The notes below the pieces were generated by a model, which was not told the origin of the DNA, ran no database searches, and saw only the letters and a list, made by a program, of their open reading frames with translations. A stretch of DNA of 64,000 bases. It comes from Leucoraja ocellata. Lineage: Eukaryota. Of the stretch, positions 9,501 to 40,162 are shown piece by piece (the stretch's first letter is position 1; each line of letters starts with the position of its first letter). The stretch is from positions 930,001-994,000 of the forward strand of contig JAWMAR010000563.1 of the NCBI GenBank assembly GCA_036785375.1, in the 5' to 3' direction. A program made the position numbers and the translations under genes.

Positions 9501-9520
9501 CCCCACCTCTCTCTCTCTCC

Positions 9521-10110: not shown

Positions 10111-10149
10111 TTAGAACACCAATGTGTGGTGGGACCCACAACAAAGTCA

Positions 10150-10458
10150 CGTCACTGCCCCACCTCTCTCTCCCGCTTCACACTTTCGCTTTCATGAGCT
10201 CGCCTGTCGCGCTCCACCCCGGCAACCGGTGTCGCGGCGCCAGCTGTGCTGCTGATTGGACAGACTGGGCTATTTATCACCAGCTTCACGGGGCTCTTCT
10301 GCCCGGATACCGGTGACTCACGGGCGGGCAGGACTGTGATTGGCCGTGGGCACGGCGCCGACCAATCAGCGCGGGGTGCGGGCGTGAAACGGGCGGGCAA
10401 GCGGTGCAGAGTGAATCGCGCATGCGCCCAGGACTAGCAAACTCACCACAACCTGGAC
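10150..10458 (+). promoter_or_regulatory. MHC class I-type promoter: ISRE + two X1-X2-Y modules + CCAAT + GC box
   Basis: ISRE actttcgctttc 10182-93; X1/X2 cccggcaaccgg-tgtcgcg 10218-36 with Y ctgattgg 10252-59; X1/X2 cccggataccgg-tgactca 10302-20 with Y gtgattgg 10336-43; ccaatcag 10362-69; CpG-rich. Confidence 0.75.
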
Positions 10459-10570
10459 CAAAGATTACAGAGGAGCAAGATAGACCACTCCTCGAAAAAC
10501 GCGTAGTATGATGTGTGTGATTGTCGACGCCATTTTTTGAGGCATTTTATTGAGCTTACCCCACACTGTC

Positions 10571-11785
10571 ATGGCGTCCTTATCTAAATCTTCACATCAC
10601 TGCTCTGCTATCAAGTATTCTAATCGTAAATCTAAATGACCCGACCTGTCATTCTTTAGGTTCCCCAATAAAAAAGAAAGGTGAGAAAATATTATTATTA
10701 TTTTCAGTCGATATTCTGTCGTGAAAATGTTATTTTCTGTTCTCCCATGAACAGCCATTGGGAAACTAGGTTTGTCGGTACATTAGAAAGTTATTAGACT
10801 TATTTTTAATAGAACTTTACTTACCATAATAATAAAGACAATTTTAACACTTCTGTACATTTTTGGTTTTGTTCTTGTAAGGGATTGGTCTCCACAATAT
10901 GGCCCGCGGGACACATCAGGTCCAGTGACCATGGGATTTTTCGAGCTCAGATTCGTGTCCGAGAATGCGGCGGCTGTTACCCATTATGTCCCTCGAATTG
11001 TCGAGACATCACAAGCAAAGATCACAAGCCCGCCGTGAAGAAGGGTGCAATCAAATATTATACAACTCTGCTCTATCATCTTTGGGTGCAATGGTGGGTC
11101 GGGGGGTTAGGCGGCGGCGGCCGCAATCAAAGATACGAGAGGAGCTCTGCTCTATAATCTTTGGTCGGAATGGGACGGCTGCGCGTTATAATGTGGTATC
11201 GTTCCACTCCCTCTCCCCCTTCTTCCTCTCCCTGTCCCCCTTCTCCCTCTCCCCCCTTCTCCCTCTCCCCCCTTTTCCCCTTCTCCCTCTCCCCTTCTCC
11301 CTCTCCCCCATCTCCCTCTCCCCCTTCTCCCTCTCTTCTCTCTCCCCTCTCTTTCGATCTCTCTCTCCCCTCTTTTCTCTCGATCTCTCTCTCTCCCTCT
11401 CTTCTCTCGATCTCTCTCTCTCTTCTCTCGATCTCCCTCCCTTCCCTCTCTCCCTCCCTTACCTCTTCGTGAGAGTTGGCAGCTCTGCTATGCCTTGGGT
11501 CCAAAAGAGGATAGAAAGAAAATACTTAATGGTCTTTAAGGTAAATTGACATATTAGAGGCAAAAAGCATCTTCAACATACAGATCTCCACACAACTGAA
11601 AACAATTGCATTTAAGTGATATATCATCCATTGTTCAGGCATGTAGTTATGATCATCTTTTTTCTTATTAGTTAATCCTAAATGATATCTCCTGTAATTT
11701 CAGATGTCAACAGTGGGTCCAGAATACTCGTCGACAAGATCTCCTGCACCGAACTGCAGAGTATTTGTCAAATAACTGCCGTCTT
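10571..11785 (+). pseudogene. Two-exon THAP zinc-finger remnant of the transposase (10571-10680 + 11704-11785)
   Basis: MASLSKSSHHCSAIKYSNRKSK*PDLSFFRFPNKKE|RCQQWVQNTRRQDLLHRTAEYLSNNCRL; GT-AG phase-2 intron; stop at 10637, second Cys codon reads TAT; similarity ends before the catalytic domain. Confidence 0.85.
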
Positions 11786-11895
11786 ATGTACATTGTGTGA
11801 AATTGTGATTTGTTAACTGCACAAAACTAATGCAAATGGCGATATATTTATTATTGTATCTACGTTGGACATTTTGCTCTTTGGTGTCAGAACGC

Positions 11896-12038
11896 GGGGT
11901 GGGAGATTGCAACCTTCACGTGGTCCACCCTGTTTCGACAAATGCAATCAACCCGGTGTGCACAGTCAAATAAGATCAAATAGAACAAGTTGTCCTACAA
12001 CTTTAGGCTGTGCACGCCATACGCAATAAGAAGAAGAA
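11896..12038 (+). mobile_element. 143-bp 5'-truncated retroposon with (aag)n tail
   Basis: 12-bp TSD gtgtcagaacgc at 11884-95 and 12039-50. Confidence 0.8.
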
Positions 12039-13339
12039 GTGTCAGAACGCAGTCTGAAGAAGGCTTCCGACCTACAACATCACCTATTCCTTTTCTCCAG
12101 AGATGCTGCCTGACCCACGGAGTTACTCCAGCATTTTGTGTCTATCTCTGTTTAGATTGGACTCGTGTGTGGAGATTGCGGCTGGTCTGGTGATCTAGAA
12201 CGAGGGCCAAAGTCTCAGAATATGGGTCATGATATTTAGTAATGAGACAAGGAGCAGTTTCTTCACTCAAGGGCTGGGAATCTTGGAATTCTTTATCGCG
12301 TGAGATGGTGGAAGTCGAGCCCTTGAAAGGAGAGATTTTTTTTTTCAAATACAAAAAGGATGAAGGATAATGGAGAGAATGTGGGAATAAGGTGTTGAGT
12401 TGCAGGATCAACAGTAATATTACTGATGGTGGTGTGAACTTAGATGGCTTATCCTTGCTTCTATTTCTTACAGAGACACAGCACGGAAACAGGCCCTTTG
12501 GCCAACCGCATCCGCATTGACCAGCAATCCCCGCACACTAACACCATCCTACACACACTAGGGACAATTTACACTTATACCAAGCCTACAAACCTGTATG
12601 TCTTTGGAGTGTGGGAGGAAACCGAAGATCTCGGAGAACACCCATTCAGTCATGGGGGAATGTACGAACTCAGTACAGACAGCACCCACTGTAAGGCAGC
12701 AACTTTACTGCTGCACCACCATGCCGCCCTTAATCCACTAGGGCACTAGGTTACAATAAACTTCCTACATATTCCAGGAATGCATCTCATAAAAATGGGA
12801 GAGATTTAAATGCAGTGTAAAATCTGCTCTCAGTTTCCTAGATCGATATTGCTCTAATGGCCTCTTTGTATCATTTTCTTTGATTTAAACCATCCATTGT
12901 TCTGCATTTAGATTTTATTTTTCCCCTGTGGATCACAAGGCACTGTTTGTTTCAGGGGTGACTCTAATCTCCAGCGTAATTTGACAAGACAGCCAAGAGG
13001 GCAAACACAGGCAGTTCAGAGCTGCTGCCTGTATCGCATGAGAGAACAAGAATGAGACCAACTTGTTTTTTGCAGATCATCAACCCTTGACTGATGTTAT
13101 CAATGCCGATGGTGACTCAAGGAGACTCAACCAGGTGGTGGTTTACAAAGGTCCATGCCCATTGTTCCTCATGGCATACCACCAGCCTCAACAGATCACC
13201 TAGTCATAGAGTCTCACAGCGTAGAAGCAGGCCCTTCAGCTCAACTTGTCCACGCTGGCCAACATGTCCCATCTACACTAGTCCCACATGCCTGCATTTG
13301 GCCCATACCCCTCTAAACCTGTCCTAACCATCAAATAAC

Positions 13340-13945
13340 CTAACAGAACTGTCATATGAGGAAAGATTTAAAAGACTAGGCTTGTATTCACTGGAGTTTA
13401 GAAGGATGAGGGGGAATCTTATCACATTGTTTACAGTGTACTATGTTTACAGATTCTGTTGTGCTGCTGAAAGTAAGAATTTAATTGTTCTATCTGGGAC
13501 AAGCTAGATGCAGGAAATTGTTCTACATGACAATAAAACACTCTTGTTAGATACAAGGGGATCTTATAGAAACGTCTAAATGAATAAAAGGACTGAACAA
13601 GCTAGATACAGGAAAAATGTTCCCAATGTTGGGCGAGTCCAGAACCAGGGGCCACAGTCTTAGAACAAAGGGGAGGCCATTTAAGACTGAGGTGAGAAAA
13701 AACGTTTTCACCCAGAGAGTTGTGAATTTGTGGAATTCCCTGCCACAGCGGGCAGTGGAGGCCAAATCACTGGGTGGATTTAAGAGACAGTTAGATAGAT
13801 CTCTAGGGGCTAGTGGAATCAAGGGATATGGGGAGAAGGCAGGCATGGGTTATCGATTGGGGCTGATCAGCCATGATCACAATGAATGGCGGTGCTGGCT
13901 CGAAGGGCCAAACGGCTTCCTCCTGCACCTATTTTCTATATTTCT
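13340..13945 (+). mobile_element. CR1 3' fragments nested in the THAP element
   Basis: ORF 13617: FPMLGESRTRGHSL...FTQRVVNLWNSLP; CR1 3' UTR. Confidence 0.9.
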
Positions 13946-16249
13946 AGAACACTCATCCAGTAATCCTCGAGCCCACCAGCTCATCCCGTAGTCAATTCAT
14001 CAGCTTTTCCATAAGAACTTCCATCAGTTCTTCCAAAAGAATGACAATCGGACAATCTCGATTACCCTCAGCCCATCAAGCAGCCCCTTAATTCGCACAG
14101 AAGTCTGAACTATTGAATGCTCACTGCATCTCTTTCCATGTCAGCAAGTTAATATCCAGCTGCATGAACCATGTGAAAAAGGAATAAATAGATGCATGTG
14201 GTGCAGTGATTTGTGCAGCACTATAGGTCTGGAGACCAAGAGGAGTTCACCATTGAACGGAGTTTGAACGGGGGGGCTTGAGGCCCCCGACCGAGGAAGA
14301 ACAAAAGGAAGGGACTTGAACTTTATTTCGCCTTCCATCATAGTGAGGAATGTGTAGGAGTCACTTTGGTGAATGTCCGTATTAAAATGTGTTTGTGAGT
14401 GCTGTTGCTTTTAATTGTATGACTGACCTGGCCAATGAAATTCCTCGTATGTTGCAAAACATGCTTGGCAAATAAAATCTGATTATGATTCTGAAAAGCC
14501 TTTCCCATACTCTTTCCTCTCTTTGATCTTTTTGCAGTTGACTGCCTTTCTGTACTTGTTGCAAGAGATTGTTGTGGCATCCAGCATCCTCGGAGAATGT
14601 AGAATTAAAGGCAGAGGCAATAAGATGGTTATTTGCCTCAAGATTGGGTTATTGTATCTCCAGAGGCTCTGGGAGACACAAGGTTCAAGAGGGAACACAA
14701 AAAGCCTAATTAGGAAGAATATTAAGAGTAAGATTTTCAATTAAAATACTGTAATTGATGGAACCTTGCCTTTAAATTGGTTCTTGGATGAAACCCTGAT
14801 GGTTCTCACATTATCTCTTTAAATTTACTCTCCTTTTCACACTTGCATTAAAACACACAGCCACCGCCATTCACAGTGATACTGCCCGGCACTCATAATT
14901 ACAGTCAACACAGCCACCTTGACAGCCACACAAAATGATGTAAATAAAAATTGTTTTCCTTGTTTAAGAAGTTCAATTTAGAATTATTTGAAATTGTGGG
15001 GTTTGGTACAAAATACTGCTGACCCACAAATGTGTTGCTATGCGACATTCACATTTAAAAAATCCATGTCTCAAAAAAAGCAAGAAGATGCCCATGTTAT
15101 TTGACCAACATCAGATGAATTTAAATATGTAGGTATGTATTCATTAGTTTTGCTCTTAATTCCCTTTTCCAAATCATTAATATATATGGTAAACAGTTGC
15201 GGCCCCAACACCAAGCCTTGCGGCAAAAAAATCCAGATGTTTAGTCAAACATGATTTCCCTTTCATAAATCCATGTTGACTTGGACTAATTATTTTACTG
15301 CTATCCAAATGCCCCATTATTACATCTTTTATAATTGACTCTAGCATCTTTCACACCACCAAAGTCGGGCTAACTGGTCTGTAATTCCCCGTTTTCTCTC
15401 ACGCTCCTTTCTTGAAAAGTGGGATAGCATTAGCTATCCTCCAATTCACAGGAACTGATCGTAAATCTATTGATCGTTGGNNNNNNNNNNNNNNNNNNNN
15501 NNNNNNNNNNNNNNNNNNNNNNNNNNNNNNNNNNNNNNNNNNNNNNNNNNNNNNNNNNNNNNNNNNNNNNNNNNNNNNNNNNNNNNNNNNNNNNNNNNNN
15601 NNNNNNNNNNNNNNNNNNNNNNNNNNTATGTGTGCATATTTATGTGTATACGTATGTATGTATGTATGTGTATATATGTGTGTGTGTATATATGTATGTG
15701 TATATATATGTATGTGTATAAATATATATATATGCAGATATTTATTATTACTATATAATTATATATATAATTGCCTTTATGGTTCATGCACATCATCTTA
15801 CAAGACAAATGAATTCCTGTAGTGATTATTTAAATCAGTTGCTTCTGATCCATGAGAATAAACTTTATTATCTCTAACTTGCCTCTCACACACAGACACA
15901 CATTCATATAAATATGTAAAATATATATACGTAAAATTTAATTTTGTGCAGTGTGTGTTAAAGCAATACAAGGGAAACTGTACAATACAATGCAAGGGAA
16001 ACTACGCAAAGGAGGGGGCTGTTCCCGCTACAAGATACTCGAGGATCTTTGCTTTGGATCAAAGATTATAGCGGAGCTCTATAATCTTTGCTTTGGATCA
16101 CAGCGGGTGGCATACCGGAAGTCACGTGTCGCATTAAAAAATGGCGGCCGTGACGTTCCGTCACGTACTACACGCCAGTCCATTGGATTTCGGAGGAGTG
16201 GTCTATCTTGCTCCTCTAGGATCTTTGACCTGGACAGTCGGGGGCGACC

Positions 16250-16317
16250 ATGCTCTGCCCGCTGCTGCCGCTGTTGCTGCTGCACGCCCTCCCTCCTGGC
16301 TCGAGCCCACGCTGCAG
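16250..16317 (+). pseudogene. MHC class I leader (signal peptide) exon with a +1 frameshift
   Basis: gcgaccATG, Leu-rich stretch, donor cag|gtgggt; deleting one C in gccctccctcctgg gives MLCPLLPLLLLHALLLARAHAA-G in phase 1, matching the alpha1 acceptor. Confidence 0.65.
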
Positions 16318-16361
16318 GTGGGTGACGGGCACTGATGGGCTGCCAACCCAGTCCCGGACAG

Positions 16362-17816
16362 TGGCTGAGGGTCTGTGTGTGGGTGAGGGTCAGTGTGTGG
16401 GTGACGGTCAGTGTATGGGTGAGGGTCAGTGTGGGTGAGGGTCAGTTTGTGGGTGGGTCAGTGTGTGGATGAGGGTCAGTGTGGGTGAGGGTCAGTTTGT
16501 GGGTGAGGGCCTGTGTGGGTGAGGGTCAGTGTGTGGGTGAGGGTCAGTGTGTGGGTGAGGGCCTGTGTGTGGGTGAGGGTCAGTATGTGGTGTAGGGTCA
16601 GTGTGTGGGTGAGGGTCAGTATGTGGGTGAGGGTCAGTGTGTGGGTGAGGGTCAGTGTGTGGGTGAGGGTCAGTGTGTGGGTGAGGGCCTGTGTGTCGGT
16701 GACGTTCAGTGTCGGGCTGGGCACCTTGTTCCGGTCAGGGGAATTGGCGGTGAGGGCCTGTGTGGGTGACGGTCAGTATGTGGGTGAGGGCCTGTGTGTG
16801 GGTAAGGGTCAGTATGTGGGTGAGGGTCAGTGTGTGGGTGAGGGTCAGTGTGTGGGTGAGGGTCAGTGTGTGGGTGAGGGTCAGTATATGGGTGAGGATG
16901 AGTGTATGGGTGAGGGTCAGTGTGTGGGTGAGGGTCAGTGTGTGGGTGACGGTCAGTGTGTGGGTGAGGGTCAGTGTGGGTGAGGGTCAGTGTGTGGGTG
17001 AGGGTCAGTGTGTGGGTGAGGGTCAGTGTGTGGGTGAGGGTCAGTGTGTGGGTGAGGGTCAGTTTGTGGGTGAGGGTCAGTGTGTGGGTGAGGGTCAGTG
17101 TGGGTGAGGGTCAGTGTGTGGGTGAGGGTCAGTGTGTGGGTGAGGGTCAGTGTGTGGGTGAGGGTCAGTGTGTGGGTGAGGGTCAGTGTGTGGGTGAGGG
17201 TCAGTGTGTGGGTGAGGGTCAGTGTGTGGGTGAGGGCCTGTGTGTGGGTGATGGTCAGTGTCGGGCTGGGCACCTTGTTCCGGTCAGGGGAATTGGCGGT
17301 GAGGGCCTGTGTGGGTGATGGTCAGTGTGTGGGTGAGGGTCAGTGTGTGGGTGAGGGCCTGTGTGTGGGTGAGGGTCAGTGTGTGGGTGACGGTCAGTTT
17401 GTGGGTGACAGTCAGTGTGTGGGTGAGGGTCAGTGTGTGGGTGAGGGCCTGTGTGTGGGTGAGGGTCAGTGTGTGGGTGAGGGTCTGTGTGTGGGTGAGG
17501 GTCAGTGTGTGGGTGAGGGTCAGTGTGTGGGTGAGGGTCAGTGTGTGGGTGAGGGCCTGTGTGTGGGTGAGGGTCAGTGTGTGGGTGAGGGTCAGTGTGT
17601 GGGTGAGGGTCAGTGTGTGGGTGAGGGTCAGTTTGTGGGTGAGGGCCTGTGTGTGGGTGAGGGCCTGTGTGTGGGTGAGGGTCTGTGTGTGGGTGAGGGT
17701 CAGTGTGTGGGTGAGGGTCAGTGTGTGGGTGAGGGTCAGTGTGTGGGTGAGGGCCTGTGTGTGGGTGACGGTCAGTGTCGTGCTGGGCACCTTGTTCCGG
17801 TCAGGGGAATTGGCGA
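16362..17816. repeat. 18-bp G-rich minisatellite (gggtgagggtcagtgtgt)n with three 39-bp spacers
   Basis: Tandem array; spacer gtcgggctgggcaccttgttccggtcaggggaattggcg at 16711, 17260, 17777. Confidence 0.97.
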
Positions 17817-18329
17817 GGGGGGGGGGGTTCAGTTGTGAGATGGAAACAGGGTTCACCAGCCAGTGGGTGAGGGTCATTGTCAGGATGGGCACAGCATAAT
17901 AACCCCTGGTACATTGAAACAGGGAGATCAGGAGGGTAAATAAGGGTAAATAAGGGAGATGAGAGATAAGTTAAAGGAGTATCCTGAGATTTTCCACAAA
18001 TATGTAAAGAGCAAAATGGTTTATATTGAGGGATTAGAATCCGTTCAGGATGAATATGATGGTCTGTGTGTGAATCCACAGGAGATTAGTGAGATTGCAT
18101 CTGTATTTTCAGTACAGAAGGTCATAGAAGCCAAGAATTACAGGAAATGAGCAGACATGTCTTGGAATGAATCCGCATTATAAAAGAGGCGGTGCTGCTG
18201 GTCTTACGGCATATTAAGTAGTAGAAACAAAGAACTGTCGATGCTGGTTGGTTATTACACAAGAGGGCATAAAGTGCTGGAGTAACTTGTCAGGTCAGGC
18301 AGCATTTCTGGAGAGTCTGAAGAAGCATC

Positions 18330-18712
18330 TCAGCCCAAAACATCACGTATTGATGGTGTGGAAAGTTTCATCTTGGGAGCAGATGAGAGAGAGACAGAGA
18401 AATTGGGAGCAAGGAATAGTGTATTTGCAAAAGTCAGGGTGGGAGGAGGTGTAGTGGGGATAACTGTGTGAGTCGGTAGGTTTGTAGCAGACATCAGTCA
18501 ATAGCCTGTCCCCAGTGTTGGAGGCAGAGAGATCACGAGAGGGGAGAGCGGCATCAGAGAAAGTCCAGGTGAATGTGAGGGCAGGTGGGTTAGTGATGAT
18601 GTTAATTAAATCAATGAGTTCTGCACGGGTGCAGGAGGTAGCCCCGATGCAGTCGTTCATGTAGTGGAGAAAGATTTGTGGGAGGTGCCAGAGTACGTTT
18701 GGAACAAGCAAA
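18330..18712 (-). mobile_element. Penelope-like element RT fragment
   Basis: ORF 18343..18711: YMNDCIGA...FTWT...YKPTDSHSY.HYTSSHP...IPCSQFL. Confidence 0.85.
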
Positions 18713-21565
18713 AAAATGTTTTATTTACATTATATATTAACGATTTAGATGAGGAAATTAAATGTAACATCTGCAAGTTAGCGGATGACACAAAGCTGGG
18801 TGGCTGTGTGAGCTGCAAGGAGGATGCTATGAGGCTGCAGAGTGACCTGGATAGGTTGGGTGAGTGGGCAGATGCTTGGCAGATGCCGTATAATGTGGGT
18901 AAATGTGAGGTTATCTACTTTGATGGCAAGAACTGGAAATCAGATTAATGTCTGAATGTTGTCAGATTAGGAAAAGGGAGGGGCAACGAGACCTGGGTGT
19001 CCTTGTACATCAGTCACAGAATGTAAGCATTCAGGTAGAGCAGGTAGCAAAGAAGTTGGCCTTCATTGCAAGAGGATTTGAGTTTTGGAGCAAGGAGGTC
19101 CTACTGCAGTTGTACAGGGCCGTGATGAGACCACACCTGGAGTATTGTGTGCAACTTTATTGTGTGATCTCTTTATTTGAAGAATGACATTCTTGCTATT
19201 GAGGGAGTGCAGTCTAAATTCACCAGGATTATTCTCAGGATGGCGGGACTGACATATGATGAAATAATTGGTCGACTGGGCTTGATTTCACTGGAATTTA
19301 GAAGGATGAGAGGCATTCGTATAGAAACATATACAATTCTTAAAGGATTGGACAGGATAGATGCAGGAAAAATGTTCCCTATATTGGGGGAGTCCAGAAC
19401 CAGGGGCCACCGTTTAAGAATAAGGGGTAGGCCATTTAGGACTGAGATGAGGAAAAAACGTTTTCATTAAGAGAGTTGTGAATCTGTGGAATTTTACTTC
19501 GGAGTCACGTGAGTGACTTCGTGAAGAACCCCGCTTACGACGCATGCGTGTCATATCGCTACACGCATTATGCGAGTCAGACATGGGAGAGGACGTCTCC
19601 CTAGAGGTAAATGGAAAGAAGCAGGTAAGAGACTGCAAACTTTTTGCCACTTACCTTGCAGGTAGGAAACTGCAGGATGAAGAAGCTGCGGGAAAGCTGG
19701 AGGGGAGAACCGCGGAGACAGCGGGCAGCCAGCAACATCACCAGCAGCCGACGGCACGCGAATCCTCCGGAGAGGAAACAGCTGTGCCCGACGTCGCTCC
19801 CCGCACCGGCAAGATTCACTGCTGCCGGGCGGGAAGCGAAGCAACACGTCCCGGGTTTCCAGACTCAGGCGAGTCTGGGTTGGATGCAGTCGCTAGCGGC
19901 ATCGGAGCCGATTGAAGCGGCTGGAGGACCGGGGCGAGCGACCAGTACCGTGAGTACGGGGTTGGTCAGAGGGGTTGAAGCCCTACGAGCAGCCGCGGGT
20001 GGCCTATGCTTGGGGCATTTTCTGCAGGTTTTTACCGCTGCAGACGACCACGAGGGACCAGTGCTGTAAGCACCAATGTCGGTCCCAGCGGCTAGAACGA
20101 GCAGCCGGGAGCGGCCAGTGCTGGGGGCATTGGTGCTCGTTTTAACGGATGCAGAAGACCGCGAGGGACCAGTGCTGTAAGCATCAGTGTCGGTCCCAGC
20201 GGCTAGAAGGATGAAGCCAGGAGCGGCCAGTGTGCTGGGGGCATTGGTGCCGGTTTGACCGGCTGCAGAACAACCATGAGGGACCAGTGCGTGAGCACCA
20301 GGGGCGGTTCCAGTGGTTGAAATTAACAGGTTTGTTGCACTGCATTCTGAATTTCTAGGAATGGACAGAGTAATGCGAAGAAGGCTGCGGAGAAGGTGCA
20401 GGAAGTAAGTCAGGAGTCTCGGATGGAGAGCTGTGCCTGACTTATTCCCGCGCTGGCAAAATCAACTTCTTGGCCGGGCGGGAAGGCAAAGAGAAAACTA
20501 CATTACTGTGAAAGTGATGGGGATTTGGAGCAGTCACTGGATAAAACCTACCAGTACCGGAGCAGGGAGCTCGAAAGCCGGTACGAGTGGCTGCAGGATG
20601 ATCAGCCGCCAGCAGGTGCCCGTGAGTACTGGGACTGCAAGGAGCGGCATAGTTATATCGGGCGGCCAAAAGCGACCATTCCCCGTAGGCATGGGGATCG
20701 GTTGCGGGAAGTACCACGTGCGACTAGTGCCCGAGAGCACCAAGGTCGGCAGGAGCGGGCCGATATATTAAAGCACCCGCGATCGACTAGTGCCCAAGAG
20801 CACGGAAGTCGGCTGGAGCGGTTGCTGGAGGAAATTCTCCACAGTGGCAGGCTCCGGGATATGGAGGATAGCCACAGTGGGCAAAAAATATGTCCCACAG
20901 CAGTTTCCCATAAGGGCTGCATGAAATATCAGATGCCTCTGAGGAGGGTATTGAAGGTCTGACTGGGTCAGAATCTGAGCAGGTGATGGAGCCACCTTCC
21001 CCTATTGAAGGGGAGAAAAACAAGTTGCTGGACATGGTGCCAGTACTTTCCAACAAGTACAAACTGGGAAGGATCTCGAGGCCAGGATGGCTGCCAGTGT
21101 TAATAAAGACATCACTGCGAAAGTGATGTGGAGAAACAGCCTCCGGATAATACTTACCGATACCGGAGTGAGGATGAGCAGCTGCAAGATATAGCGCAGC
21201 CAGCAGCGGCCACTTTTGTGGAGCTGGGAAATCGGTACGAGTGGCTGCAGCAGGTTGGGCCGTCAGCGACAGGTGCCGGGGAGTACCGGGACTGCGAGCA
21301 ACGGCATGACCAGTGCCTGTAGGCATGGGGACTGGCTGCGGCAAAACCGTGGCACGAAGGTCGGCAGGAGCGGTTGGATAAATTTAAACACCCACGATCG
21401 ACTAGTGCCCGAGAGCACGTAAGTCGGCTGGAGCGGTTGTTGGAGGAACTTCTCCAGAGTGACAGGCTCCAGAATATGCACGATAGCCACAGTGGCAAAG
21501 GTGTAAGTCCCTCAGCAGATTACCATAAAGGGCTGCTTGACATTTCATCCTCCTCAGAAGAGGGT

Positions 21566-24500: not shown

Positions 24501-25794
24501 CCTTACACAATTATGTTGAAAAGTGGCCCTTTTTGATTTTTGCCCTGGTTTTGTCTGCCTGCCACTTTTACTTTTCACCTTGCTACCTATTTCTTCTACC
24601 CTCATTTTACACCCTTCGGTCTCTACGCTCACACATTTAAGAAACCCTTTCCCTTTAACTCCATCCTCCACTGTCCCATTCAACACCCCACCCCCCTTAT
24701 TCAGTTTAAAGCCACCCGTGTAGCAGTGGCAAACCTGCCTGCCAGAATGCTGGTCCCACACCTGTTAAGATGCAACCCGTCCCTTTTGTACAGTTCCCCC
24801 TTACCCCAAAACAGATCCTAGTGATCTAAGAATCTAAATCCGTGCCCCGTGCACCAGATCCTCAGCCACACGTTCAGGTCCCGTATCTCCCTGTTGCTGC
24901 TCTCGCCAGCACGGGGAACTGGAAGCAAACCGGAGATAACAACCCTGGAGGTCCTGCTTTTCAACATTTTTCTGAGCTCTCTAAAGTCACGCTGCAGAAT
25001 ATTCATCCCCTTCTTTCCGACATCGTTTGTGCCGACATGCACTACCACTTCCGGATGTTCACCTTCGCCCTTGAGGATTTTCTGCACTCTGTCCGTGACA
25101 TCCTGGATCCTGGCACCGGGAAGGCAGCACACCATCCTCGCATCCCGTCTGTTGCCGCAGAAACCCCTGTCCGTACCTCTCACGATGGAGTCTCCCACTA
25201 CAATGGCCTTGCCTGCCTTAGGCCTTTTTGGTTTTGGCTCAACAGCCCTATTCGCGTCACAGGCCAGTCCGCCGCTCACGTCTTCTGTCCCAACAGCTTC
25301 TAAGCGGATGAACCTGTTTACAAGAGGTACATCACCCGGGGACGTTGGCATTCCATGCTTCCCTCCCTTTCTCACTGTCTCCCACCTTCTCTCTTCCAGT
25401 ACCTTAGGTGTAACAATCGTACTGTAGGACTTGTCGAGGAACGACTCCGTTTCTCGTACGAACCGGAGGTCATCCACTTGCTTCTCCAGTTCCCCAACAC
25501 GGCCCTTCAGGAGCTCTACCTGGATGCATTTTTCGCATTTGTAGCAGCCAGAGGCACCAGCGGTGTCCTTGACCTCCCACATACTGCAAGCATCGCACTG
25601 AATCAGCTTGCCTGACATCTCCTTCTTTCGTCTCCCTCTCAAGCGTATTGCGTGGTCTCCTCTCCGAAGACTCTCGAGCCAAAGACTCACACTTTTCTCA
25701 CAGGGCACTTCCCTCACTAGGCCGCTCACTCACTGCCGCTCGCAAAGAGCTGTCCTGCTTAAATTGACTGATAAATTGCCTGATTTACCAATTT
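21566..25794 (-). mobile_element. Near full-length young CR1 LINE nested in the DIRS
   Basis: ORF1 24818..25729 (CxxC zinc finger, GDSIVRG/HVGTND esterase); ORF2 23274..24761 + 21769..23268 (APE + RT FADD); (tttctatg)n tail; TSD agggt at 21561-65 and 25795-99. Confidence 0.97.
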
Positions 25795-27602
25795 AGGGTG
25801 TTGAAGGGCTGCTTGTGTTAGATTCTGAACTAGAGATGGAGCCACATTCGCATATGGAGGACGAGAAAACCAAGTTGCTGGACATGTTGGGTAATACTTT
25901 AAGCAAGAACAGGCTGACAAAGATCTAGAGGCCAGGATGGCTGCCAGCATTGACTACATGTCTGCACATCACCTGCAAGCAAACCTTTGCTGAGGTGTTG
26001 GCAAAACATTTACCTCCAGGAAATTGTGGGGCTCTGAATGTGGCCAGTGTTAACCGAAGTATTTGGAGACACGTTGGTCAGGTATCAGGAGTCAGGATAA
26101 AAAACTCAAAATCTCTCGGCGGGCATAACAGCCTGATACGCTAGAGAACATAGACATGATGAATGACCATAAAGATGCTTTAGCGTTTTTTCCAACGTTC
26201 AATTTGAACTTAATAATATTAGGAAGGGGGCTATTCAGCCAGCTCTGGATCCAGTTTGCAATCCTGTGCAAGCAAAAGCTATAAAACCTCAAACCCTGTT
26301 GTTTGTAGGTGACCTGTCGACACAGGTCAAAGATTTGAAGAGGAGGCCAAGACTTTGGGGGCCTAATCAGAGCGGCCATAGGATATCTTGGCAAACGATA
26401 TCAACCTTGTGGGCCTCCTAATAAAGATAGTACTTATTCTTATAGTACGAGAAATTGGAGAGAGGCCAGAGGTAACCAGCAGCAGCATCCTTTTTTAGGG
26501 GTTGGCCCGGGACGCCCACTGTGGAAGATGCGCAAGCATCCACTTCAACATCTACCCTGCTCTCAACCTCACGGCCCTCCGCAACCACGGTTGAAACCAA
26601 GAAAGTAACTACATTTCCACCGATAACCATGGAGGTAGGTGGGTCTGTGCCTCCAGAATTAATAAGGAGCACGGAAGTTGGAGGGAGGTTGTAATTTCAT
26701 TTGGAAGCATGGTGTAATATAACTATGGAGAGATATATCCTTAGCAGTATTAAGGGATATCTGATAGAGTTTATACTCATACGAAACCCTCCAGTACAAC
26801 ATACACCGGACAGAATATACATAATTACCAAATTAGAACGAGCTAAAGCTCACATAGAACCACAAAGGTTGTTCACTATAAGAGTAATTTAAATGACCAA
26901 ACATGAACAACAGGAATTTGTCTCAAACATATTTATTAGACATAAGAGACATGGGGGTTGCCGTATTATTATTGATTTATCAACGTTTAACAATTTTGTG
27001 CAATATGTTCATTTTAAAATGGATATTTTTAGCACTGCTACAGAGTTAGTTTAGCGGGCTACTGTATGGCAAGTATTGATCTTCAGGATGCTTACTATAC
27101 GGTACCCATCAGAGGTGAACACAGGCGGGTTTTGAAATTTAACGGATGGGATAGCCTTGGCAATACAAGGCGCTACCAAACAGGCTAACGTCAGCTCCTA
27201 CATTATTTACAAAAATTCTTAAACCAGCCTTGGCATTGCTTAGACAGCAAAATCTATCTGAAAAGTATCATTTATCTCTGAAAGCAACGCCTTTATGGCT
27301 ATACTTTCAGTTGGCACGAGAGTTATATATTAATACATCATCAGCGAACTGAGTTAAGGACCTGTCCTACTGATGTTACTTTCAGCAACTGTCTTCGACC
27401 TTCTAACTTGAGGGCACTCACTTGAAAAAACCTTGAGCTGGATCGACTGTCAATGATGGAATAGTGCTAGAAGTGCATTGTTGAGTTATTTATGGCAAGG
27501 CACAGAAAGACAGGCTGTGGGCGCATATCCTCTAGTAGTAAAACTGTTATGAGGCATCTTTAACACCACCCACAAAGGTCTAGATACAGCCAAATCTGGG
27601 AT

Positions 27603-28199
27603 GTGAGTGTGGTCCTAACCATGCTAGGGATTGGTCACCGGGCTACAGCTTTAACTCTGAACCAACTCACTATGAAAATGGTAATGCTAATGGCGCTGGT
27701 CACAGCGCAAAGGGTCCAGTCATTTCAGAAATTAAGATTGGATAGCTTGACTGTGGCGACAGGAAGTTTGATATTTGGGATCCAGGACCTCATTAAGCAA
27801 AATAGACCAGGATCAGTGGGTCAGGTCATAGAAGTCATAGCCTATCTGCAGGGCGAACGCCTCTGTGTAGTGAAACACATTGTGTTATATATTGACAGAA
27901 CAAAGGCTATCAGAGGCAATGAAAAGGCTCTTTTGATTAGCCATAAGAAGCCGTACCATAGAGTCTCGACTCAGACCATTTCGCGGTGGCTGAGATATGG
28001 CTTAATAAAGGCGGGAGTGGACACTCACTCCACCAGGGCTGCAGCTACATCGGCAGCTAATCGCCTCGAGGTATCGATGGACCAAATCCTCAGGATTGCA
28101 GGATGGTCATCAGAGAGAAAACGTTTCAGAGATTTTACAACAAACCAGTTAGGAATGAAGAAACTTTTTCGCGAGGAAAAAATGTTAAGTTCTATATAA
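27603..28199 (+). pseudogene. DIRS tyrosine recombinase remnant
   Basis: TAQRVQ (catalytic R), LCVV, TISRWL, HSTR (HxxR), AGWSS; frameshift before the catalytic Tyr. Confidence 0.85.
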
Positions 28200-30334
28200 T
28201 TTATACCTGAAGCTTACAAGGTTTATGATTTGATTTAATAATATTATTTATCATTTACGTTTAAAAATTGGTATGAATGTATTTCTTGAATATCAGTAAC
28301 AATTTCTCCCAAACTACCAAGGCAGTTGTGAAGCATGGACTCGCTCCACGGCATGAGGTCACAGAGCTTTGAAATCTTCACGAAGTCGCTCACGTGACTC
28401 CGAAGTAAAATAGTAAGATTAAACGAGAACTTACCAGTTTGAAGTTTGATCTTTATTTTATGAGGAGGAACGTTGAGGGAATACGTGCCCTCCGCTCCCA
28501 CCCTCATATGGTCATATCTGAAACTGGTATTTCTTTAATAATCTTACTATGTTTTTACTTACTTTGAAGGATGACATGCATGCGTCGTAAGTGGGGTTCT
28601 TCACGTATTCCCTCAACGTTCCTTCTCATAAAATAAAGATCAAACTTCAAACTGGTAAGTTCTCGTTTAATCTTACTATTCTCTGCCACAGAAGGCAGTG
28701 GAGGTCAATTCACTGGATGTATTCAAGAGAGAGTTAGATTTAGCTTTTAGGAATTAAGGGATCAAGGGATATGGGGAAAAAGCAGGAACGGGGTATTGAT
28801 TTTAGATGATCAGCCATGATTATATTGAATGATGGTGCTTGCTTGAATGGCCGAATGGCCTACTGTTGAACCTATTTTTCTATGTTTTCTATGTTTCTAG
28901 GACTGTTTGATGTAAATAATAAAAAGGCAGGCACAGCTTTGGCCCACGCGAGTGCTCATGGCTACCCCTTTAACTTGGAGAAAATTAGAGGTGAATAGAG
29001 AAGTGTAGAGGGGAGGACAGGTTTGACCCGGCCTCTGGCAGCTCGGTCCAAACACCCATCACCCTTGGAGTGAAAAACGTACCCCCAAGATGTTATTAAA
29101 TTTTGCCCCTCCCACCTTAAAACTGTGCTCTCTGGTTCTTGATTCTCCGCGCCTGGATAATCACTAGACAATTGACAATAGGTGCAGGAGTAGGCCATTC
29201 GGCCCTTCGGGCCAGCACCGCCATTCAATGTGATCATGGCTGATCATCCCCAATCTGTACCCCGTTCCTGCCTTCTCCCCATATCCCCTGACTCCGCTAT
29301 TTTTAAGAGCCCGATCTAGCTCTCTCTTGAAAGCATCTAGAGAACCTGCCTCCACCGTTTCGGAAGCAGAGAATTCCACAGACTCACAACTCTCTGTGAG
29401 AAAAAGTGTTTCCTCGTCTCCGTTCTAAATGGCTTACTCCTTCTTCTTAAACTGTGGCCCCTAGTTCTGGACTACCCTAAAATCAGGAACATGTTTCCTG
29501 CCTCTGGCATTTCCAAACCCTTAACAATCTAATATGTTTCAATGAGATCCCCTCATGATTTTATACACCTCCATATGCTCAAGCCTCTATGAAGTGGATA
29601 CTCACAGTCTTTTACCAGTGTTGAGTCTCACGTTTGACTACACTGTTTAAAATACATTTGGACAGGTACATGGGTGGGAAACATAAGGACATGCAGATGC
29701 TGCTTTACAAAAGGTCAGTGATAGGTGGATACATGGTGGGGGGGGGGGGGAGGTTGATGGGGTAGATGTTCAAGGGCAGAGATGAACAGGCAAAATGTGT
29801 CACACAATGACAGAATAGTTGTACTGTGTCCTTACCCCCGAGACCCAGTGCTGGGCACAGCTCAGTGCGGGCACGTTAATGGGTGAGGCATGGCCATGCA
29901 GGAGGCTTGGCGAGGTGTGGAAGTTGGGCGGACAGTGGGAGGGCAGGAGATGGCCAGAGTACACAATATCTGCCTCCACAACCACCCCTGGCAATGCGTT
30001 CCAGGCCCCCAACTACTCTGTGTAAATAAACCTTTCCCTTTACATCGTGGCTTAAAACTATACCCTCTACTTTGGGTCATTTTGCAGGTTAATTGGCCTT
30101 TATAAAATAATCCTGGTGTGTGGGAAGTGGATTTGAAAGTGGGATAACATGAACAAGTGTGAATGGGTGATCGATGGTCAGCATGGACTCGGTGGGCTGA
30201 AGGGCCTGTTTCCATGCTGTATCTCCAAAGCAAACTCAGTTAAATCACCGTGGATCTCGTGCATCTTAATCTTCTGGACCAGCTACCATGGGGGACTTGA
30301 TCACATGCCTTACAATCACCACACACACAACGGG

Positions 30335-33199
30335 GAATGTTGGGGGGTTTTTGTGGGCGGGGGTGGAGAGATTGTGGGTGGGGTGGGTGTGGGGCTGTGT
30401 GTGTGGGGAGCTGGGGTATGTGTGGTGTGGGTTACTGGTGTGTAAGCGGGATGTGTTTGGGGTTCTGTGTGCGTGTGTGTATTTGTGGGGTGTGTGTGTG
30501 TGTGGCGTGTGTGTGCAAGATGTGTGGGGTGTGTGTGGGTGTGTGTGGGGGTGTTGGGTGTATTAGTGTGTGTGGGTGTGTGTGTTTATGTGTGTGTGTG
30601 TGAGAGAGATTATGGGGGGGGGGAATCTGTGTGTCCCGCTGTCTCTGACTCTGTGCCCGGTTCCAGGCTTCCACTCGCTGCGTGGGTGTGTGTGTATGTG
30701 TGTGTAGGTGTGTGTAGGTGTGTGTGGATATGTGTGTGTAGGTGTGTGAGGGTGTGGTGTGTGTGTGTGTGAGAGGGTGTGAGTGTGTTTATGTTTAGGG
30801 TGTGTGGGGGGTGTGAGTGTGTGTATGTGTGTGTGTGTGTGGGGGGGGCTGTGCGAGTGTGGATGTGGGTGTGTTTGTGTGAGAGTTTGTGTTTGTGTGT
30901 GTGTAGGCGTGTGTGTGGGTGGGTGTGTGCATGGGTGTATGCATGTGTGTGTGTGTGTGTGTATGTGGGGTGTGTGTATTTGGGGTGTGTGAGTGCGGTG
31001 CAAGTGTGTGAGTGTGTATATGTGTGTGGGGGGGGGATGTGGGTGTGTGTAGGTGTGCGTGAGTGTGGTTTGTGTGTGTGTGGGGTGCGTGCGTGGGTTT
31101 GTGTGAGTGTGTGTGGGTAAGTGTGTGGGTGGTTATGTGTGGGTGTGTGTATGGTTGTGTTAAAATGAGTTCTTTTTGCCAGTCTAATTCAAGAAAACTT
31201 GATTCAAACCATTGCTGCTAAAATCGACTCTTTATTCTGACAGCGCTGGATAATTCTTTAAACCTTCCAACACAGAGTTCGAAACTCGGGGGCAGGTTGA
31301 AAGAACTACTGACTTTGGCATAAATGTAACACATTATATAGGTAAAAGACAAGTATAGTACAATAGGAATAGCAAACTATTAACCAATCATTATGGTTTA
31401 CCATACATTTCACTTATTTGCATTAACCAATCAACTAAATCCTAATGCTCAGTCTGAAGAAGGGTTTCGGCCCGAAACGTTGCCTATTTCCTTCGCTCCA
31501 TAGATGCTGCTGCACCCGCTGAGTTTCTCCAGCTTTTCTGTATAACTAAATCCTTTCCATTGATTGACAACACGTATAGTCACATGATTTTCCCTTTTCC
31601 AGCCCCTTTACAACCTTCATCCCCTCTGGTTTCTTCAACCTCTTTGCTCAAAATCATTTTATTTCATTAAAGTAAAACCACAGATATAAAACTAATTCTC
31701 ACAGAATACTTTTCAGAATATACACATAATATAGCAATCACACAACACATACATACAAAACATATTTTCACTTTTGGAAAAGAAAGTTATTTCTAAAACT
31801 TCCGATTTAAACAAAGTCTAATACTTACAATCGTAATTAAACACAATACACTTCACAATTAATTCCCTTACAACCACTTAGTTAAAATACAGTTACTTAT
31901 GGATTACAAAGATTAAAGATGAGTTTCGCCCCATTCTTACAAAGTGGTAAAGACAAAGTTCTAATCACACAATTCCCAACTACAGCCACATAAAGGCACT
32001 TGATTGCTTCTTCCCAAGCTCGGGTCTAATTTCATTTTGTATTACAACCTCCCCCTACTATCTCTGGAGAAAAGGAATGTAACATTTCCTCGCCACTAAA
32101 AGCATTCCGCACAACAAATGAAAGAGTATCAAAACAGAGTTATTTTCTCAGTTTCTGGTAACCATAAGAAATCCTTTTGCAAAGGTCACACAACCATCAT
32201 CTATGCCTTATCTTTTATCCCAACATAAACACATCTAAACAGCACAAACCATCTCACAGACTAGTATCTACCCTTGGTGCCTACAATCCAACATAGGCAA
32301 CCATAAATTGCCTTAGATGACACAGCCAAACTCTGAGATGTGTCACAAAGGAAGAAGGATGGTGCCCATGTCATGGAGAAAGATCCCATTAACAACCTCT
32401 ATTATAAACACCAACCTAAACCAACTACACCTTCTCACAGCATGATTATTGCTCCAAAGCAATAAAGAAAGATATGCCTATCCAGGTCACCCCTTCCATG
32501 TTTATGATAAGCCATCTGTTCTCCTGTGTGTGTTCTTTGTTCTTTATTTCTTTGTGGAGGCATGTATTTCTGAAAGCCCCAACTCCAAACCCTTCTCTTG
32601 CAACTTAACACAAGTTCCTTAAGAACTTATCATTTGAGCAATCTTATTATATATTTCCTCAGTTGTGCGTGTGGGGGTATGTGTTTGTGGGTGTGTGTGT
32701 GTGTGGGTGAGTGGGTGTGTGTCTAGTTGTGTGTGGTTGGTTGTGTGTGTGTGTGGGTGTATGTGGGTGTGTGTATTTGAGTGTGGGTGCGTGTTTGTGT
32801 GTGTGTGCATGGTGTGTGTGGGGTGTGTGGGTGGGGGGTTTGTGTGTATGGTGTGTGTGTGGGGGTGTGTGTCTGTGGTCTGTTGTCGATGGGTGTGTGC
32901 ATGAGTGCACCGGTGTGTGGGTGTGTTTGTGTGGGTGGGTGTGCGGGTGTGTGGGTGTTTGTGTGGATGTGTGTGGCAGTGTGTGTGGATATGTGTGTGA
33001 GGGTGTGGTGTGCGTGGGTGGGTGAGTGTGGAGTGTGTGTTTATGTGTGGGGTGTGTGTGTGGGGGGGTGTGAGTGTGTTTATGTTTAGTGTGTGTGTAG
33101 GTGTGTGAGGGTGTGGTGTGTGGGTGGGTGTGTGTATGTGTGGGGTGTGTGTGTGTGGGAGGGGTGTGAGTGTGTTTATGTTTAGGGTGTGTGTGGGGG

Positions 33200-33240
<41 letters not shown>

Positions 33241-35471: not shown

Positions 35472-35511
35472 CTGTGTGTCCCGCTGTCTCTGACTCTGCG
35501 CCCGGTTCCAG

Positions 35512-35772
35512 GCTCCCACTCGCTGCGTTATTTCTACACGGCGGTGACGCCCGGCTCGGGGGTCCCTGAGTTCACGGTTGTCGGATACGTGGACGATGAG
35601 CAGATTGTTCACTATGACAGTGACAGACGGAAGATGGAACCGCGGCAGCGGTGGATGGCGGAGAGTCAGGGCGCCGACTACTGGGAGGAGCAGACACAGA
35701 TCCAGCGGGACGTGAAACCGGTTTTCAAGAGCGACATCCCCATCGCAATGAGCAGGACAAACCAGAGCGGGG
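35512..35772 (+). pseudogene. MHC class I heavy chain alpha1 exon (open, 261 nt, phase 1-1)
   Basis: [38 protein letters not shown]...YWEEQTQ...MSRTNQSG; acceptor ttccag, donor gtgaga. Confidence 0.97.
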
Positions 35773-35983
35773 GTGAGAGCGGGGATGTGTGTGTGGGGGG
35801 ATGTACCACGTGTGGGTGTGGTGGGTGTACCACATGTATGTGGGAGGGGGATGGGCCACGTGTGTGTGGGATGGACCACATGTGTGTGTGGAGGGATGGA
35901 CCACGTGTGTGTGGGGGGTGGTCCACGTATGTGTGTGTGTGTGTGTGGGGGTTGTGTACCTGGTGTCTGTGGGAGGGGTGGTC

Positions 35984-36019
<36 letters not shown>

Positions 36020-36313
36020 GGGGGGTCCACGTGTGTGTGTGGGGGGGCTGGTCCACGTGTGTGTCTGTGTGAGGGATGTACCACGTGTGTGTGTGTGTGT
36101 GTGGGGGGAGGGTGGTCCACGAGTGTGTGTGTTGGGGAGTTGGTCCACCTGTGTGTGTGTGTGTGTGTGTGGGGGGGGAAGGGTGGTCCACAAGTGTGTG
36201 TGTGTGTGGTGGGGGGGGGGAATGGGGTCCACAAGTGTGTGTGTTGGGGGTTGGTTCACCTGTGTGTGTGGGGGGGGGGGGACAGCGCCACCACTGATGG
36301 CCGTGTGTTGCAG

Positions 36314-36411
36314 GGATCCACAATCTCCATCACATGTACGGTTGTGAGCTGCTCTCGGACGGCTTCACCTCCGGGTTTTTCCAGTTCGGCTGGGACGGAG
36401 AGGACTTGATC
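36314..36411 (+). pseudogene. MHC class I alpha2 exon, truncated after ~33 codons by CR1
   Basis: Acceptor ttgcag; [33 protein letters not shown], then CR1 sequence. Confidence 0.95.
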
Positions 36412-36968: not shown

Positions 36969-36971
36969 GAT

Positions 36972-39900: not shown

Positions 39901-40162
39901 TATTTCTACTTTCCACTTTTTCTTTTCTTATATACACACTTCATGTTTTTCTATGTTCTACTATCTATTTTTTCCTCTTTTTCTCCGCTCCATTTTCTTC
40001 TTCTTGTCTTTCTTATTTCCTTTCCAAAAACATAAAACTAGAGGTTGTACATAGAATGTATAACTACGTTATGACATAGTTGGCACCTAAAATTAGGTCC
40101 CACTGTATCGTTTTGTATTGTACTAACTTCTAATAAAATAAACAAAAACAAAAAAAAAGAAA
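36972..40162 (+). mobile_element. L1-clade LINE 3' part, interrupted by Helitrons
   Basis: PLSFIGRINAIKM, GGLSLPNITYYYWA, CDKC..THSFVGC knuckle, aataaa + A-rich tail at 40133-40162. Confidence 0.9.
37753..39158 (-). mobile_element. Two non-autonomous Helitron units in tandem (39158-38687; 38686-37753)
   Basis: 5' TC(TA)n terminus, 3' hairpin cagacccaacgggtctg + cacttggtCTAG twice, A|T insertion site. Confidence 0.88.

Follow-up and report, generated by a model that had tools for sequence, protein, structure and literature searches.

The window analysed here, a 64-kb stretch of DNA from Leucoraja ocellata, carries a predicted promoter, a leader exon, an alpha1 exon, and the beginning of an alpha2 exon, all on the plus strand and all of MHC class I type. 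Its sequence contains N gaps at 15481-15626, 34524-34681, and 35265-35471. A CpG-island promoter of the class I type is predicted at 10157..10458 (+) from motif patterns and from CpG content, with an observed/expected ratio of 0.93 compared to 0.51 for the window as a whole. Candidate motifs include an ISRE-like site (10182-10193), an RFX half-site (10221-10226), Y/CCAAT boxes at 10252, 10336, and 10362, an NRF1-like site at 10418, and GC boxes. The motif patterns used are those of general background, not of a motif library. Some 10 bp separate the ISRE-like site from the 3′ fragment of a LINE-like element upstream of it (9516..10156, -). A 16-bp direct repeat borders this fragment on either side (9500-9515 and 10157-10172), and the 16-mer occurs twice in the window. 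We take this fragment to be a LINE based on its C-terminal Cys/His motif and its tail. Its open reading frame (9607-10029) matched no Pfam family above noise, and a Pfam search with four upstream minus-strand open reading frames likewise gave no family. The interval as originally reported starts within this fragment, at position 10150.

The promoter is followed by a 5,769-bp non-autonomous P-superfamily DNA transposon (10459..16227, +), whose interior is filled by older repeats and one N gap. The element ends in 40-nt terminal inverted repeats that are 88% complementary, and it is flanked by a perfect (8/8) target-site duplication, ACCTGGAC, at 10451-10458 and 16228-16235 (both +). The right copy and the 14 nt (16236-16249) that separate it from the leader ATG at 16250 together span 16228..16249 (+), and contigs from paralogs start aligning exactly at 16228. 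As the preliminary description had proposed, removal of 10459-16235 joins the promoter to a point 14 nt before the leader ATG, which a base-by-base check confirmed. The further proposal that the site reflects a P-type target preference is not upheld, because a single insertion from a high-copy family is no proof of preference. The insertion point may lie in the 5′ UTR, as also suggested, or in the core promoter.

Within the element, remnants of two THAP exons are recognizable. Exon 1 (10571..10681, +) is 81-85% identical to the skate THAP proteins P0064-P0066 and carries an in-frame stop and one altered zinc-ligand cysteine, and exon 2 (11702..11785, +) is 89% identical to the same proteins. 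When the element was searched by tblastn with 152 related THAP-family proteins, no credible match was found to the transposase exons that should follow; the six weak matches outside the THAP exons (E 0.016-0.038) were treated as noise. Similarly, Pfam searches with 16 short pieces of the element returned nothing above noise, and no credible match to the RNase H-like catalytic and GTP-binding domains was found in the element, of which a 146-nt gap is unread. Because the catalytic part is missing, this copy is considered non-autonomous.

The perfect 8-bp duplication and the 40-nt inverted repeats fit the P superfamily (THAP9/Pdre-like), but an 8-bp duplication alone is not diagnostic of P, since hAT elements make one as well. 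Proteins P0068 and P0070, which are 72% and 86% identical to P0064, exceed the Pfam cut-off for Tnp_P_element, and this family is listed in 16 of 26 scanned relatives (P0065 plus 25 chosen for closeness or length from the 150 listed matches). An hAT identity was rejected, as none of the 26 has an hAT dimerisation or DUF4371 domain. Judged by these domains and similarities, the THAP exons are from the P-transposase family and not from hAT. The earlier claim of a P-superfamily element directly upstream of the ATG thus holds, based on the 8-bp duplication, the inverted ends, and the THAP exons. Furthermore, 36, 61, and 48 contigs in three runs leave the alignment at 16227 into flanks that are unlike one another (agreement ~0.4). 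The P family is therefore high-copy in the skate DNA runs and is present at unrelated sites.

Three pairs of short, 31- to 36-bp terminal stubs, with ~14-19 nt per end, are likely footprints of P excision. The first (11052..11084) consists of 33 bp of inward-facing terminal inverted repeat stubs within a perfect 8-bp direct repeat, the second (16060..16090) of 31 bp within another perfect 8-bp repeat, and the third (11128..11163) of 36 bp with a flanking repeat matching at 6/8 positions. Perfect 8-bp repeats were thus observed at two of three stub pairs, compared to 0 of 11,700 background trials. The second footprint is also present in other copies of the element and is missing from one contig. 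These putative footprints would fit a Drosophila-type 17-nt staggered cut.

As described in two reports (PMC7776569, PMC10983969), Drosophila P and zebrafish Pdre share with the skate element an 8-bp target duplication, terminal inverted repeats beginning with CA, 5′ THAP exons, internally deleted copies, promoter-adjacent insertion, and probably short two-end footprints consistent with a 17-nt staggered cut. According to the same reports, the ends are 31 nt long in Drosophila and 13 nt in Pdre2, in contrast to 40 nt here, and the skate copies, as estimated from contig ends, far exceed the ~50 reported for zebrafish. The skate copy also differs in having no catalytic exons.

The leader exon (16250..16317, +) is of the skate class I type and contains a tandem duplication of CCTC at 16288-16295. 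When read across this +4 duplication, it matches the skate leaders P0010, P0013, and P0017. Because of the duplication, the exon is 68 nt long and ends in phase 2 before CAG|GTGGGT, whereas alpha1 requires phase 1. The leader frameshift reported earlier is therefore confirmed, and an unchanged leader spliced to alpha1 is computed to reach its first stop at codon 42. In contrast, contigs from paralogs (three of three DNA-like runs) begin at 16228 and lack 7 nt of the exon, giving a 61-nt, phase-1, in-frame leader. Because their alignment starts at 16228, these paralogs probably retain the empty insertion site. A contig from organism B spans 16203-16355 with one difference and no gap, and thus includes the end of the element as well as the leader with its +4 duplication; only 25 of its bases lie on the element side, below the 31-base threshold for bridging. 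Confirmation of the duplication by reads comes from organism B only, because a contig for the locus's own leader is unlisted in the two organism-A runs. Run X21 (guessed to be RNA, 17.5 million letters) covers the transposon end only, not the leader, and no RNA run was listed over 35472-36440; neither observation bears on expression. Of the 17 rows with small shares in that listing, X4 alone was used.

Downstream of the leader, an 18-bp minisatellite of 80 copies (16361..17778, +) contains GT sites in phase 1 through which splicing could circumvent the frameshift. On paper, those at 16371-16431 restore the frame and yield open frames of 178-198 codons, and thus the frameshift is not necessarily null by itself. 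By a crude count, the native leader donor outscores these cryptic donors.

Intron 1 measures 19,194 bp, of which ~17,700 bp lie in repeat or transposon intervals drawn by hand. The size and repeat content given in the preliminary description (~19 kb, filled with transposable elements) are accurate, but its listing of the intron among the lesions is not, and we describe the intron as an expansion. The nested insertions at 18722..28899 include an old, split CR1-type fragment (18722-19493 and 28678-28899) that is interrupted by a DIRS-like element (about 19495-28680) with a tyrosine-recombinase remnant at 27564-28199, inside which sits a near-complete CR1-type LINE (about 21570-25790). Some of these family assignments are putative. 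Further downstream, at 30627..30683 (+), the alpha1 splice acceptor occurs a second time, with 55 of 57 positions identical. This stub comprises 40 nt of intron, the AG at 30665-30666, and the first 17 nt of the exon before running into TG repeats. A solo-LTR-like TG...CA segment of 1,504 bp (31158..32661), described by its bounds and accompanied by a 4-bp direct repeat, lies within TG repeat.

The alpha1 exon (35512..35772, +; 261 nt) has an open frame and canonical splice sites. It matches Pfam family PF00129, which represents the class I alpha1/alpha2 domain, at E 1.5e-25 and the nurse shark structure 6LUP at E 2.9e-30, and the exons of this domain are of phase 1. Together with the skate-type leader, these matches substantiate the original assignment to MHC class I. 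Classical class Ia molecules have eight peptide-end residues (Y7, Y59, R84, T143, K146, W147, Y159, and Y171). The first three are retained, as is the N86 glycan site, and the other five fall in the missing part of the gene. The alpha2 exon is preserved for its first 98 nt (36314..36411, +), after which a 5′-truncated CR1-type LINE fragment (36409..36972, +) takes over; L1/Tx1-like sequence then extends to about 40160. The junction has a 3-nt overlap, and an in-frame stop is located 18 codons on, in agreement with the alpha2 truncation noted previously. Near the start of alpha2, a glutamine kept in 21 of 21 reference proteins is replaced by histidine. Searches by tblastn with nine and three class I proteins did not locate the rest of alpha2, alpha3, or a transmembrane exon in the 64-kb window, including 27.6 kb downstream, and the remaining matches were noise (E 0.02 or worse) except for the stub at 30633. 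The missing exons might still be situated farther downstream.

In a tree whose alignment excludes P0019, P0023, P0024, and multi-domain models, alpha1 groups with skate class I proteins (support 87/81, not starred), of which P0010 is the nearest (79% identity). Like the elasmobranch class Ia and Ia-like genes represented by nurse shark 6LUP and the skate proteins AGH32767 and XP_032903661, the locus has the long leader of the skate type and an alpha1 that groups with skate class I. It differs from them in its broken leader, its cut alpha2, and the absence of alpha3 and an anchor from the window. Inspection of the list of window open reading frames of at least 100 amino acids, without a direct search, revealed no psmb8, psmb9, tap1, or tap2. 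Classical class Ia is a single gene linked to these four (Verissimo et al. 2023, PMC10751288), and the present copy could be of the classical or of the Ia-like kind.

A gene model from the little skate, XP_055521886 (P0009), provides an independent view of the locus. Its alpha1 is 97% identical to the window copy, and its pseudo-exons are 100% identical to the window at 25937-26080 and 43378-43536. An independent long scaffold holds the segments at 25.9k, 35.5k, 36.3k, and 43.4k in the same order as the window. The model's alpha2 ends in LDLE, letters encoded in another frame of the window's CR1 junction, and it differs from the window by four residues and by what appears to be a 5-nt deletion at the junction. 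XP_055521886 represents the same locus, and probably the same CR1 cut to judge from the protein model, even though it is annotated as protein-coding with invented first and last exons. The model uses no better first exon, with nothing leader-like nearer than the pseudo-exon at 25937. Along with the skate-type leader and the matching order in the independent scaffold, this gives indirect support to the previously proposed link between the leader and alpha1. The four differences occur among 115 residues of the MHC exons, one at a near-invariant site, compared to 0 of 102 in the pseudo-exons, an excess that is not significant (P 0.12). A near-length search for fragments of an alpha1 orthologue returned one macaque protein only.

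The locus carries lesions that prevent a full protein. By separating the ISRE/Y-box promoter from the leader by 5.8 kb, the transposon would abolish or divert transcription. The CR1 cut would eliminate alpha3, the anchor, and the remainder of the peptide groove, such that no surface molecule could form, and we infer that it is the sole lesion fatal by itself. Presumably one lesion killed the gene and the others accumulated neutrally. At conserved positions, 2 of 54 are changed in the window copy, within the range of 0-7 seen in 21 unbroken reference proteins; its stem branch amounts to 0.32 changes per column. Alpha1 keeps 24 CpGs (observed/expected 1.04), and the probability of its remaining open at 10% neutral divergence is 0.04. 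A recent death fits the conserved-site count, which is no proof of neutrality, and the lineage looks to have been under purifying selection until shortly before the lesions. The expectation that the order of inactivation could be dated is not borne out by these data, because the rough clocks overlap (0.1-6%), no clock is available for the frameshift, and more than one lineage seems to carry the lesions. Dating the lesions by their clocks was accordingly abandoned, as was dating by decay of the element interior, since non-autonomous copies can spread already decayed and the second footprint is found in other copies.

Other readings of the locus deserve consideration. Two tandem class I genes might have been fused by deletion or duplication, such that one gene, its own alpha1 reduced to a 17-nt stub (30667-30683), contributed the promoter and leader and another the alpha1 and alpha2 exons. 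The 57-nt acceptor copy, with its two differences and its position 4.8 kb upstream of alpha1, could be such a relic, two N gaps fall in the interval from the stub to the exon, and the number of elasmobranch class Ia-like genes varies (PMC10751288). However, the stub matches the real acceptor at 96% identity, compared to 79% for the nearest skate alpha1 protein otherwise found, and it enters the same TG repeat directly, as would a local tandem duplication. If their sizes of 158 and 207 nt are correct, the gaps are too small for a promoter and leader, and the little skate model has no leader nearer than its pseudo-exon. We therefore regard a fusion as unlikely. Even less credence is given to the possibility that some lesions (the +4 duplication, the stub, and the joins across N gaps) are artefacts of short-read scaffold assembly. 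The presence of three N gaps and of long TG repeats, together with the unlisted organism-A leader contig, would be compatible with this explanation, but the independent scaffold agrees in order and probably in the alpha2 cut, the organism-B contig has the element end with the +4 leader, and an outside check exists for all but the stub at 30627. We judge it to have almost no chance of being correct.

It is also conceivable that the locus is still transcribed and encodes a truncated, possibly secreted protein of alpha1 plus the stub of alpha2. Transcription from the right end of the element combined with splicing from a cryptic minisatellite donor would allow this, as would use of the ATG at 15990, which derives from the element and is brought into frame by the +4 duplication. 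Alpha1 is open and barely decayed, the phase-1 GT sites permit the 178-198-codon frames, and the frame from ATG 15990 runs through the leader and alpha1 to codon 248 (76 of 3000 shuffles stay open). However, a product with alpha3 missing entirely and alpha2 largely so is not expected to adopt a class I fold, the window copy and the little skate model disagree at 4 of 115 residues, one of them near-invariant, and the native donor scores above the cryptic ones in the crude count. Moreover, the ATG 15990 frame lies in transposon sequence shared by the family and was noticed post hoc. Such a residual product seems very improbable.

We are confident, short of certainty, that the locus is a skate MHC class I copy in which a non-autonomous transposon of the P superfamily sits 22 bp ahead of the ATG, a +4 duplication shifts the leader frame, CR1-type sequence interrupts alpha2, and later exons are absent from the window, and that it is likely a recently dead pseudogene whose lesions likely arose within one short interval. 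Birth-and-death evolution of MHC class I yields pseudogenes, as exemplified by primates. The depiction of this locus as a casualty of that process is supported: as in other such pseudogenes, a duplicated copy was probably lost by frameshift, insertions, and truncation. It differs from the primate examples in belonging to a cartilaginous fish and in that one lesion was caused by a P-superfamily DNA transposon, not by a retroelement. The locus is likely an ordinary birth-and-death pseudogene, and the skate P family likely the more interesting part.

Recognition of the pseudogene corrects the gene model XP_055521886, which is listed as coding, and helps to count skate class I genes. The skate MHC was omitted from a recent survey owing to the location of its genes on unplaced scaffolds (PMC10751288). 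Our literature search found no paper on the locus or on the skate P family; Repbase, Dfam, and subscription journals were outside its scope, and the family may already be catalogued. The transposon merits specialist attention as a high-copy P-superfamily family in cartilaginous fish with footprints fitting the Drosophila cutting geometry. A bolder and, in our view, doubtful proposal is that skates hold a recently mobile, very high-copy P family that cuts with a Drosophila-type 17-nt stagger in vivo, as the three footprints would suggest, and that one insertion inactivated an MHC class I gene that was still functional, with its interferon-type promoter left facing the element's THAP exons. If true, this would be a natural vertebrate example of P-element mutagenesis in an adaptive immune gene. 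Because the zebrafish enzyme assayed to date gave larger deletions and no integration (PMC10983969), an intact copy of the skate element would be a candidate source of a vertebrate P transposase with full activity.

Base-level reading of the duplication, inverted ends, leader, alpha1, and alpha2 bears out the anatomy of a broken MHC class I gene put forward in the preliminary description. The alpha1 exon (35512-35772) has an open frame, is assigned to class I by Pfam (E 1.5e-25), and matches the nurse shark structure 6LUP (E 2.9e-30). The leader exon (16250-16317) is 68 nt long and of phase 2, whereas alpha1 requires phase 1. This shift exists because of a tandem CCTC duplication within the leader (16288-16295), and a message spliced with the native sites reaches a stop at codon 42. 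The frameshift proposed earlier is thus confirmed, but it is lethal only with the native donor, since splicing at phase-1 GT sites within 16371-16431 restores the frame on paper. The proposed alpha2 truncation also stands: the exon starts normally at 36314 and passes into CR1-type LINE sequence at 36409-36411, a cut that is fatal whatever the splicing. A tblastn search with 9 class I proteins, and a further one with 3, found no later class I exons in the window. The CR1 fragment is immediately followed by an L1/Tx1-like fragment that ends in poly(A) (36973-40160, plus strand).

A tree of 23 rows places the locus among skate class I proteins, nearest to P0010, with modest support (87/81). Elasmobranchs are described as having extra Ia-like class I genes besides the classical one (PMC10751288, in part); the locus may derive from the classical gene or from one of these.

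The 5,769-bp element lying between promoter and leader is bounded by identical 8-mers (10451-10458 and 16228-16235), the right copy lying 14 bases from the ATG at 16250, and its 40-nt inverted ends are 88% complementary. An 8-bp duplication together with a THAP domain is compatible with both P and hAT transposons. The element's two THAP exons share 81-89% identity with skate THAP proteins P0064-P0066, and two P0064 relatives (72% and 86% identical) score above the cut-off that Pfam sets for the P-transposase HTH domain. Among 26 relatives scanned for domains (P0065 plus 25 hand-picked from 150 listed matches), 16 carry this HTH domain, 9 of them with P-type RNase H and GTP-binding domains as well, and none carries a hAT domain; a hAT identity was therefore rejected. 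Judged by sequence, the element shows the P-superfamily features that were tested, other than the catalytic domains. Searches with related THAP-family proteins found no later transposase exons in it, which marks it as an internally deleted, non-autonomous P derivative, as are also known among Drosophila and zebrafish P elements (PMC7776569, PMC10983969, in part). In the little skate gene models P0065 and P0066, a B-box/coiled-coil TRIM protein is joined to the same P-family THAP region, which extends to the beginning of the transposase HTH; a host gene may have captured a transposase here, or the annotation may be at fault.

The P family is abundant: in three sequencing runs, 36, 61, and 48 contigs run past the element's right end into dissimilar flanks, and total depth, which is not a copy number, is 10^4 to 7x10^5 on the element versus 5 to 170 beside it. 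Many loose contig ends at 16213-16214 are two bases longer than the inverted repeat of the window copy, pointing to at least two subfamilies. The elephant shark has been described as poor in DNA transposons (PMC4350176, in part). Our search of published papers found none on a skate P family or on this locus, and the family may be catalogued already in repeat databases.

Three pairs of inward-facing end stubs of 31-36 bp lie within the element (11052-11084, 11128-11163, and 16060-16090). Their 8-bp flanking repeats are perfect in two pairs and match at 6/8 in one, and perfect repeats occurred in 0/11,700 background cases. P-type cuts are staggered by 17 nt (PMC7776569, in part), and footprints in general follow end-joining (PMC3878927, in part). 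By this analogy, the pairs are likely P excision footprints that fit the 17-nt stagger and end-joining of overhangs. The pair at 16060-16090 is absent from one contig and present in others, and thus predates this insertion.

Upstream of the element is a CpG-island promoter with what we take to be ISRE and Y-box motifs, which the insertion separates from the leader. Conservation of class I promoter elements extends to fish (PMC6523485, in part). The insertion had been assigned to the 5′ UTR, named as the classic P-element target; the site may be 5′ UTR or core promoter. In Drosophila, P elements prefer promoter regions (PMC7776569, PMC10983969, in part), but a single site out of a high-copy family cannot show this preference. 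A LINE-like fragment with a 16-bp duplication (9500-10172) sits ~10 bp upstream of the ISRE-like site. Read on the minus strand, this duplicated site looks like a splice donor with a minisatellite (9027-9494) behind it, a hint of a head-to-head transcript driven by that promoter. An ATG within the element's right end opens a frame (15990-16317) that is in frame with alpha1 only through the +4 duplication; this frame was open in 76/3000 shuffles, and no signal peptide is expected in its product.

Does the leader belong to this alpha1? Read across the CCTC duplication, it agrees with skate leaders, P0013 and P0017 among them. Four public runs, three of them DNA-like, were aligned to 15945-16355, and each DNA-like run yields one contig whose alignment starts exactly at 16228, preceded by 88-309 letters that do not fit the element. 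These contigs lack 7 nt of the leader, leaving 61 nt and phase 1. We read them as a paralog with an in-frame leader and, from the alignment start, a putative empty insertion site. A contig from organism B, the source of one public run, spans 16203-16355 with 1 difference and no gap; it therefore includes the element's last 25 bases, fewer than our 31-base rule for bridging, plus the 8-bp duplication and the +4 leader. For the two runs from organism A, the locus's own leader did not appear among the listed contigs, an absence that carries no weight. The proposed link is supported indirectly, but the single-gene reading is complicated by a second alpha1 acceptor, overlooked earlier, with 17 nt of exon (30627-30683; 55/57 identical). 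This stub keeps a history in which leader and alpha1 come from different genes conceivable, although it looks like a local duplication within TG repeats. Also inside the TG repeat is a solo-LTR-like segment (31158-32661) that carries a 4-bp duplication.

Intron 1 (19,194 bp) is indeed filled with transposable elements (~92% repeats by hand-drawn intervals), but this is not the lesion that had been supposed. It holds a nest (18722-28899) whose order is readable: an old CR1-type fragment came first, a DIRS-like element followed, and the last arrival was a near-complete CR1-type LINE, 96-99% identical to another copy at 61427-64000. Elsewhere in the window are an intact single-exon rhodopsin-family GPCR frame (338 aa, 48812-49828, minus strand; 7tm_1 E 1.4e-24), a Helitron helicase remnant (58250-60462, plus strand), and a GIY-YIG (Penelope-like) remnant (44235-44762, minus strand).

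The best match of the locus is the little skate gene model XP_055521886 (P0009), at 97% over alpha1. The model uses window segments 25937-26080 and 43378-43536 as pseudo-exons at 100% identity and thus represents the same locus; it lies on an independent 250-kb scaffold, where the segments keep their order across two N gaps. This places the window in a skate. The model's alpha2 terminates in LDLE, as the window's CR1 junction reads in another frame, and from the protein the little skate locus likely carries the same CR1 cut plus a 5-nt deletion. Between window and model, the MHC exons differ at 4 of 115 positions and the pseudo-exons at 0 of 102, a contrast that is not significant (P 0.12); the MHC-exon differences could stem from gene conversion or old allelic variation.

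With a frameshift, an insertion, and an alpha2 cut in a class I copy, the locus is likely a pseudogene of the birth-and-death kind, as proposed. Its death looks recent: 2/54 conserved positions are changed, compared with 0-7 in 21 unbroken reference proteins, though the stem branch is long, and alpha1 retains its CpGs. Rough divergences (95% intervals), each clock resting on different assumptions, are 0.7% (0.1-2.6) for the element end versus the family majority, 1.6% (0.2-6.0) for conserved codons, 2.2% (1.4-3.3) for the CR1 versus its nearest copy in the window, halved, 3.5% (0.4-12.7) for the acceptor stub, and 6% (2-15) for the element's two inverted ends, halved. By their point values, the CR1 would have arrived earlier than the P element rather than later. 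These data do not support the claim of a datable order of inactivation, because the intervals overlap, the frameshift has no clock, and lesions recur elsewhere: the insertion end and the frameshift also occur together in organism B, and the little skate model probably shares the CR1 cut. Typing the lesions in more species could make the order of inactivation datable.
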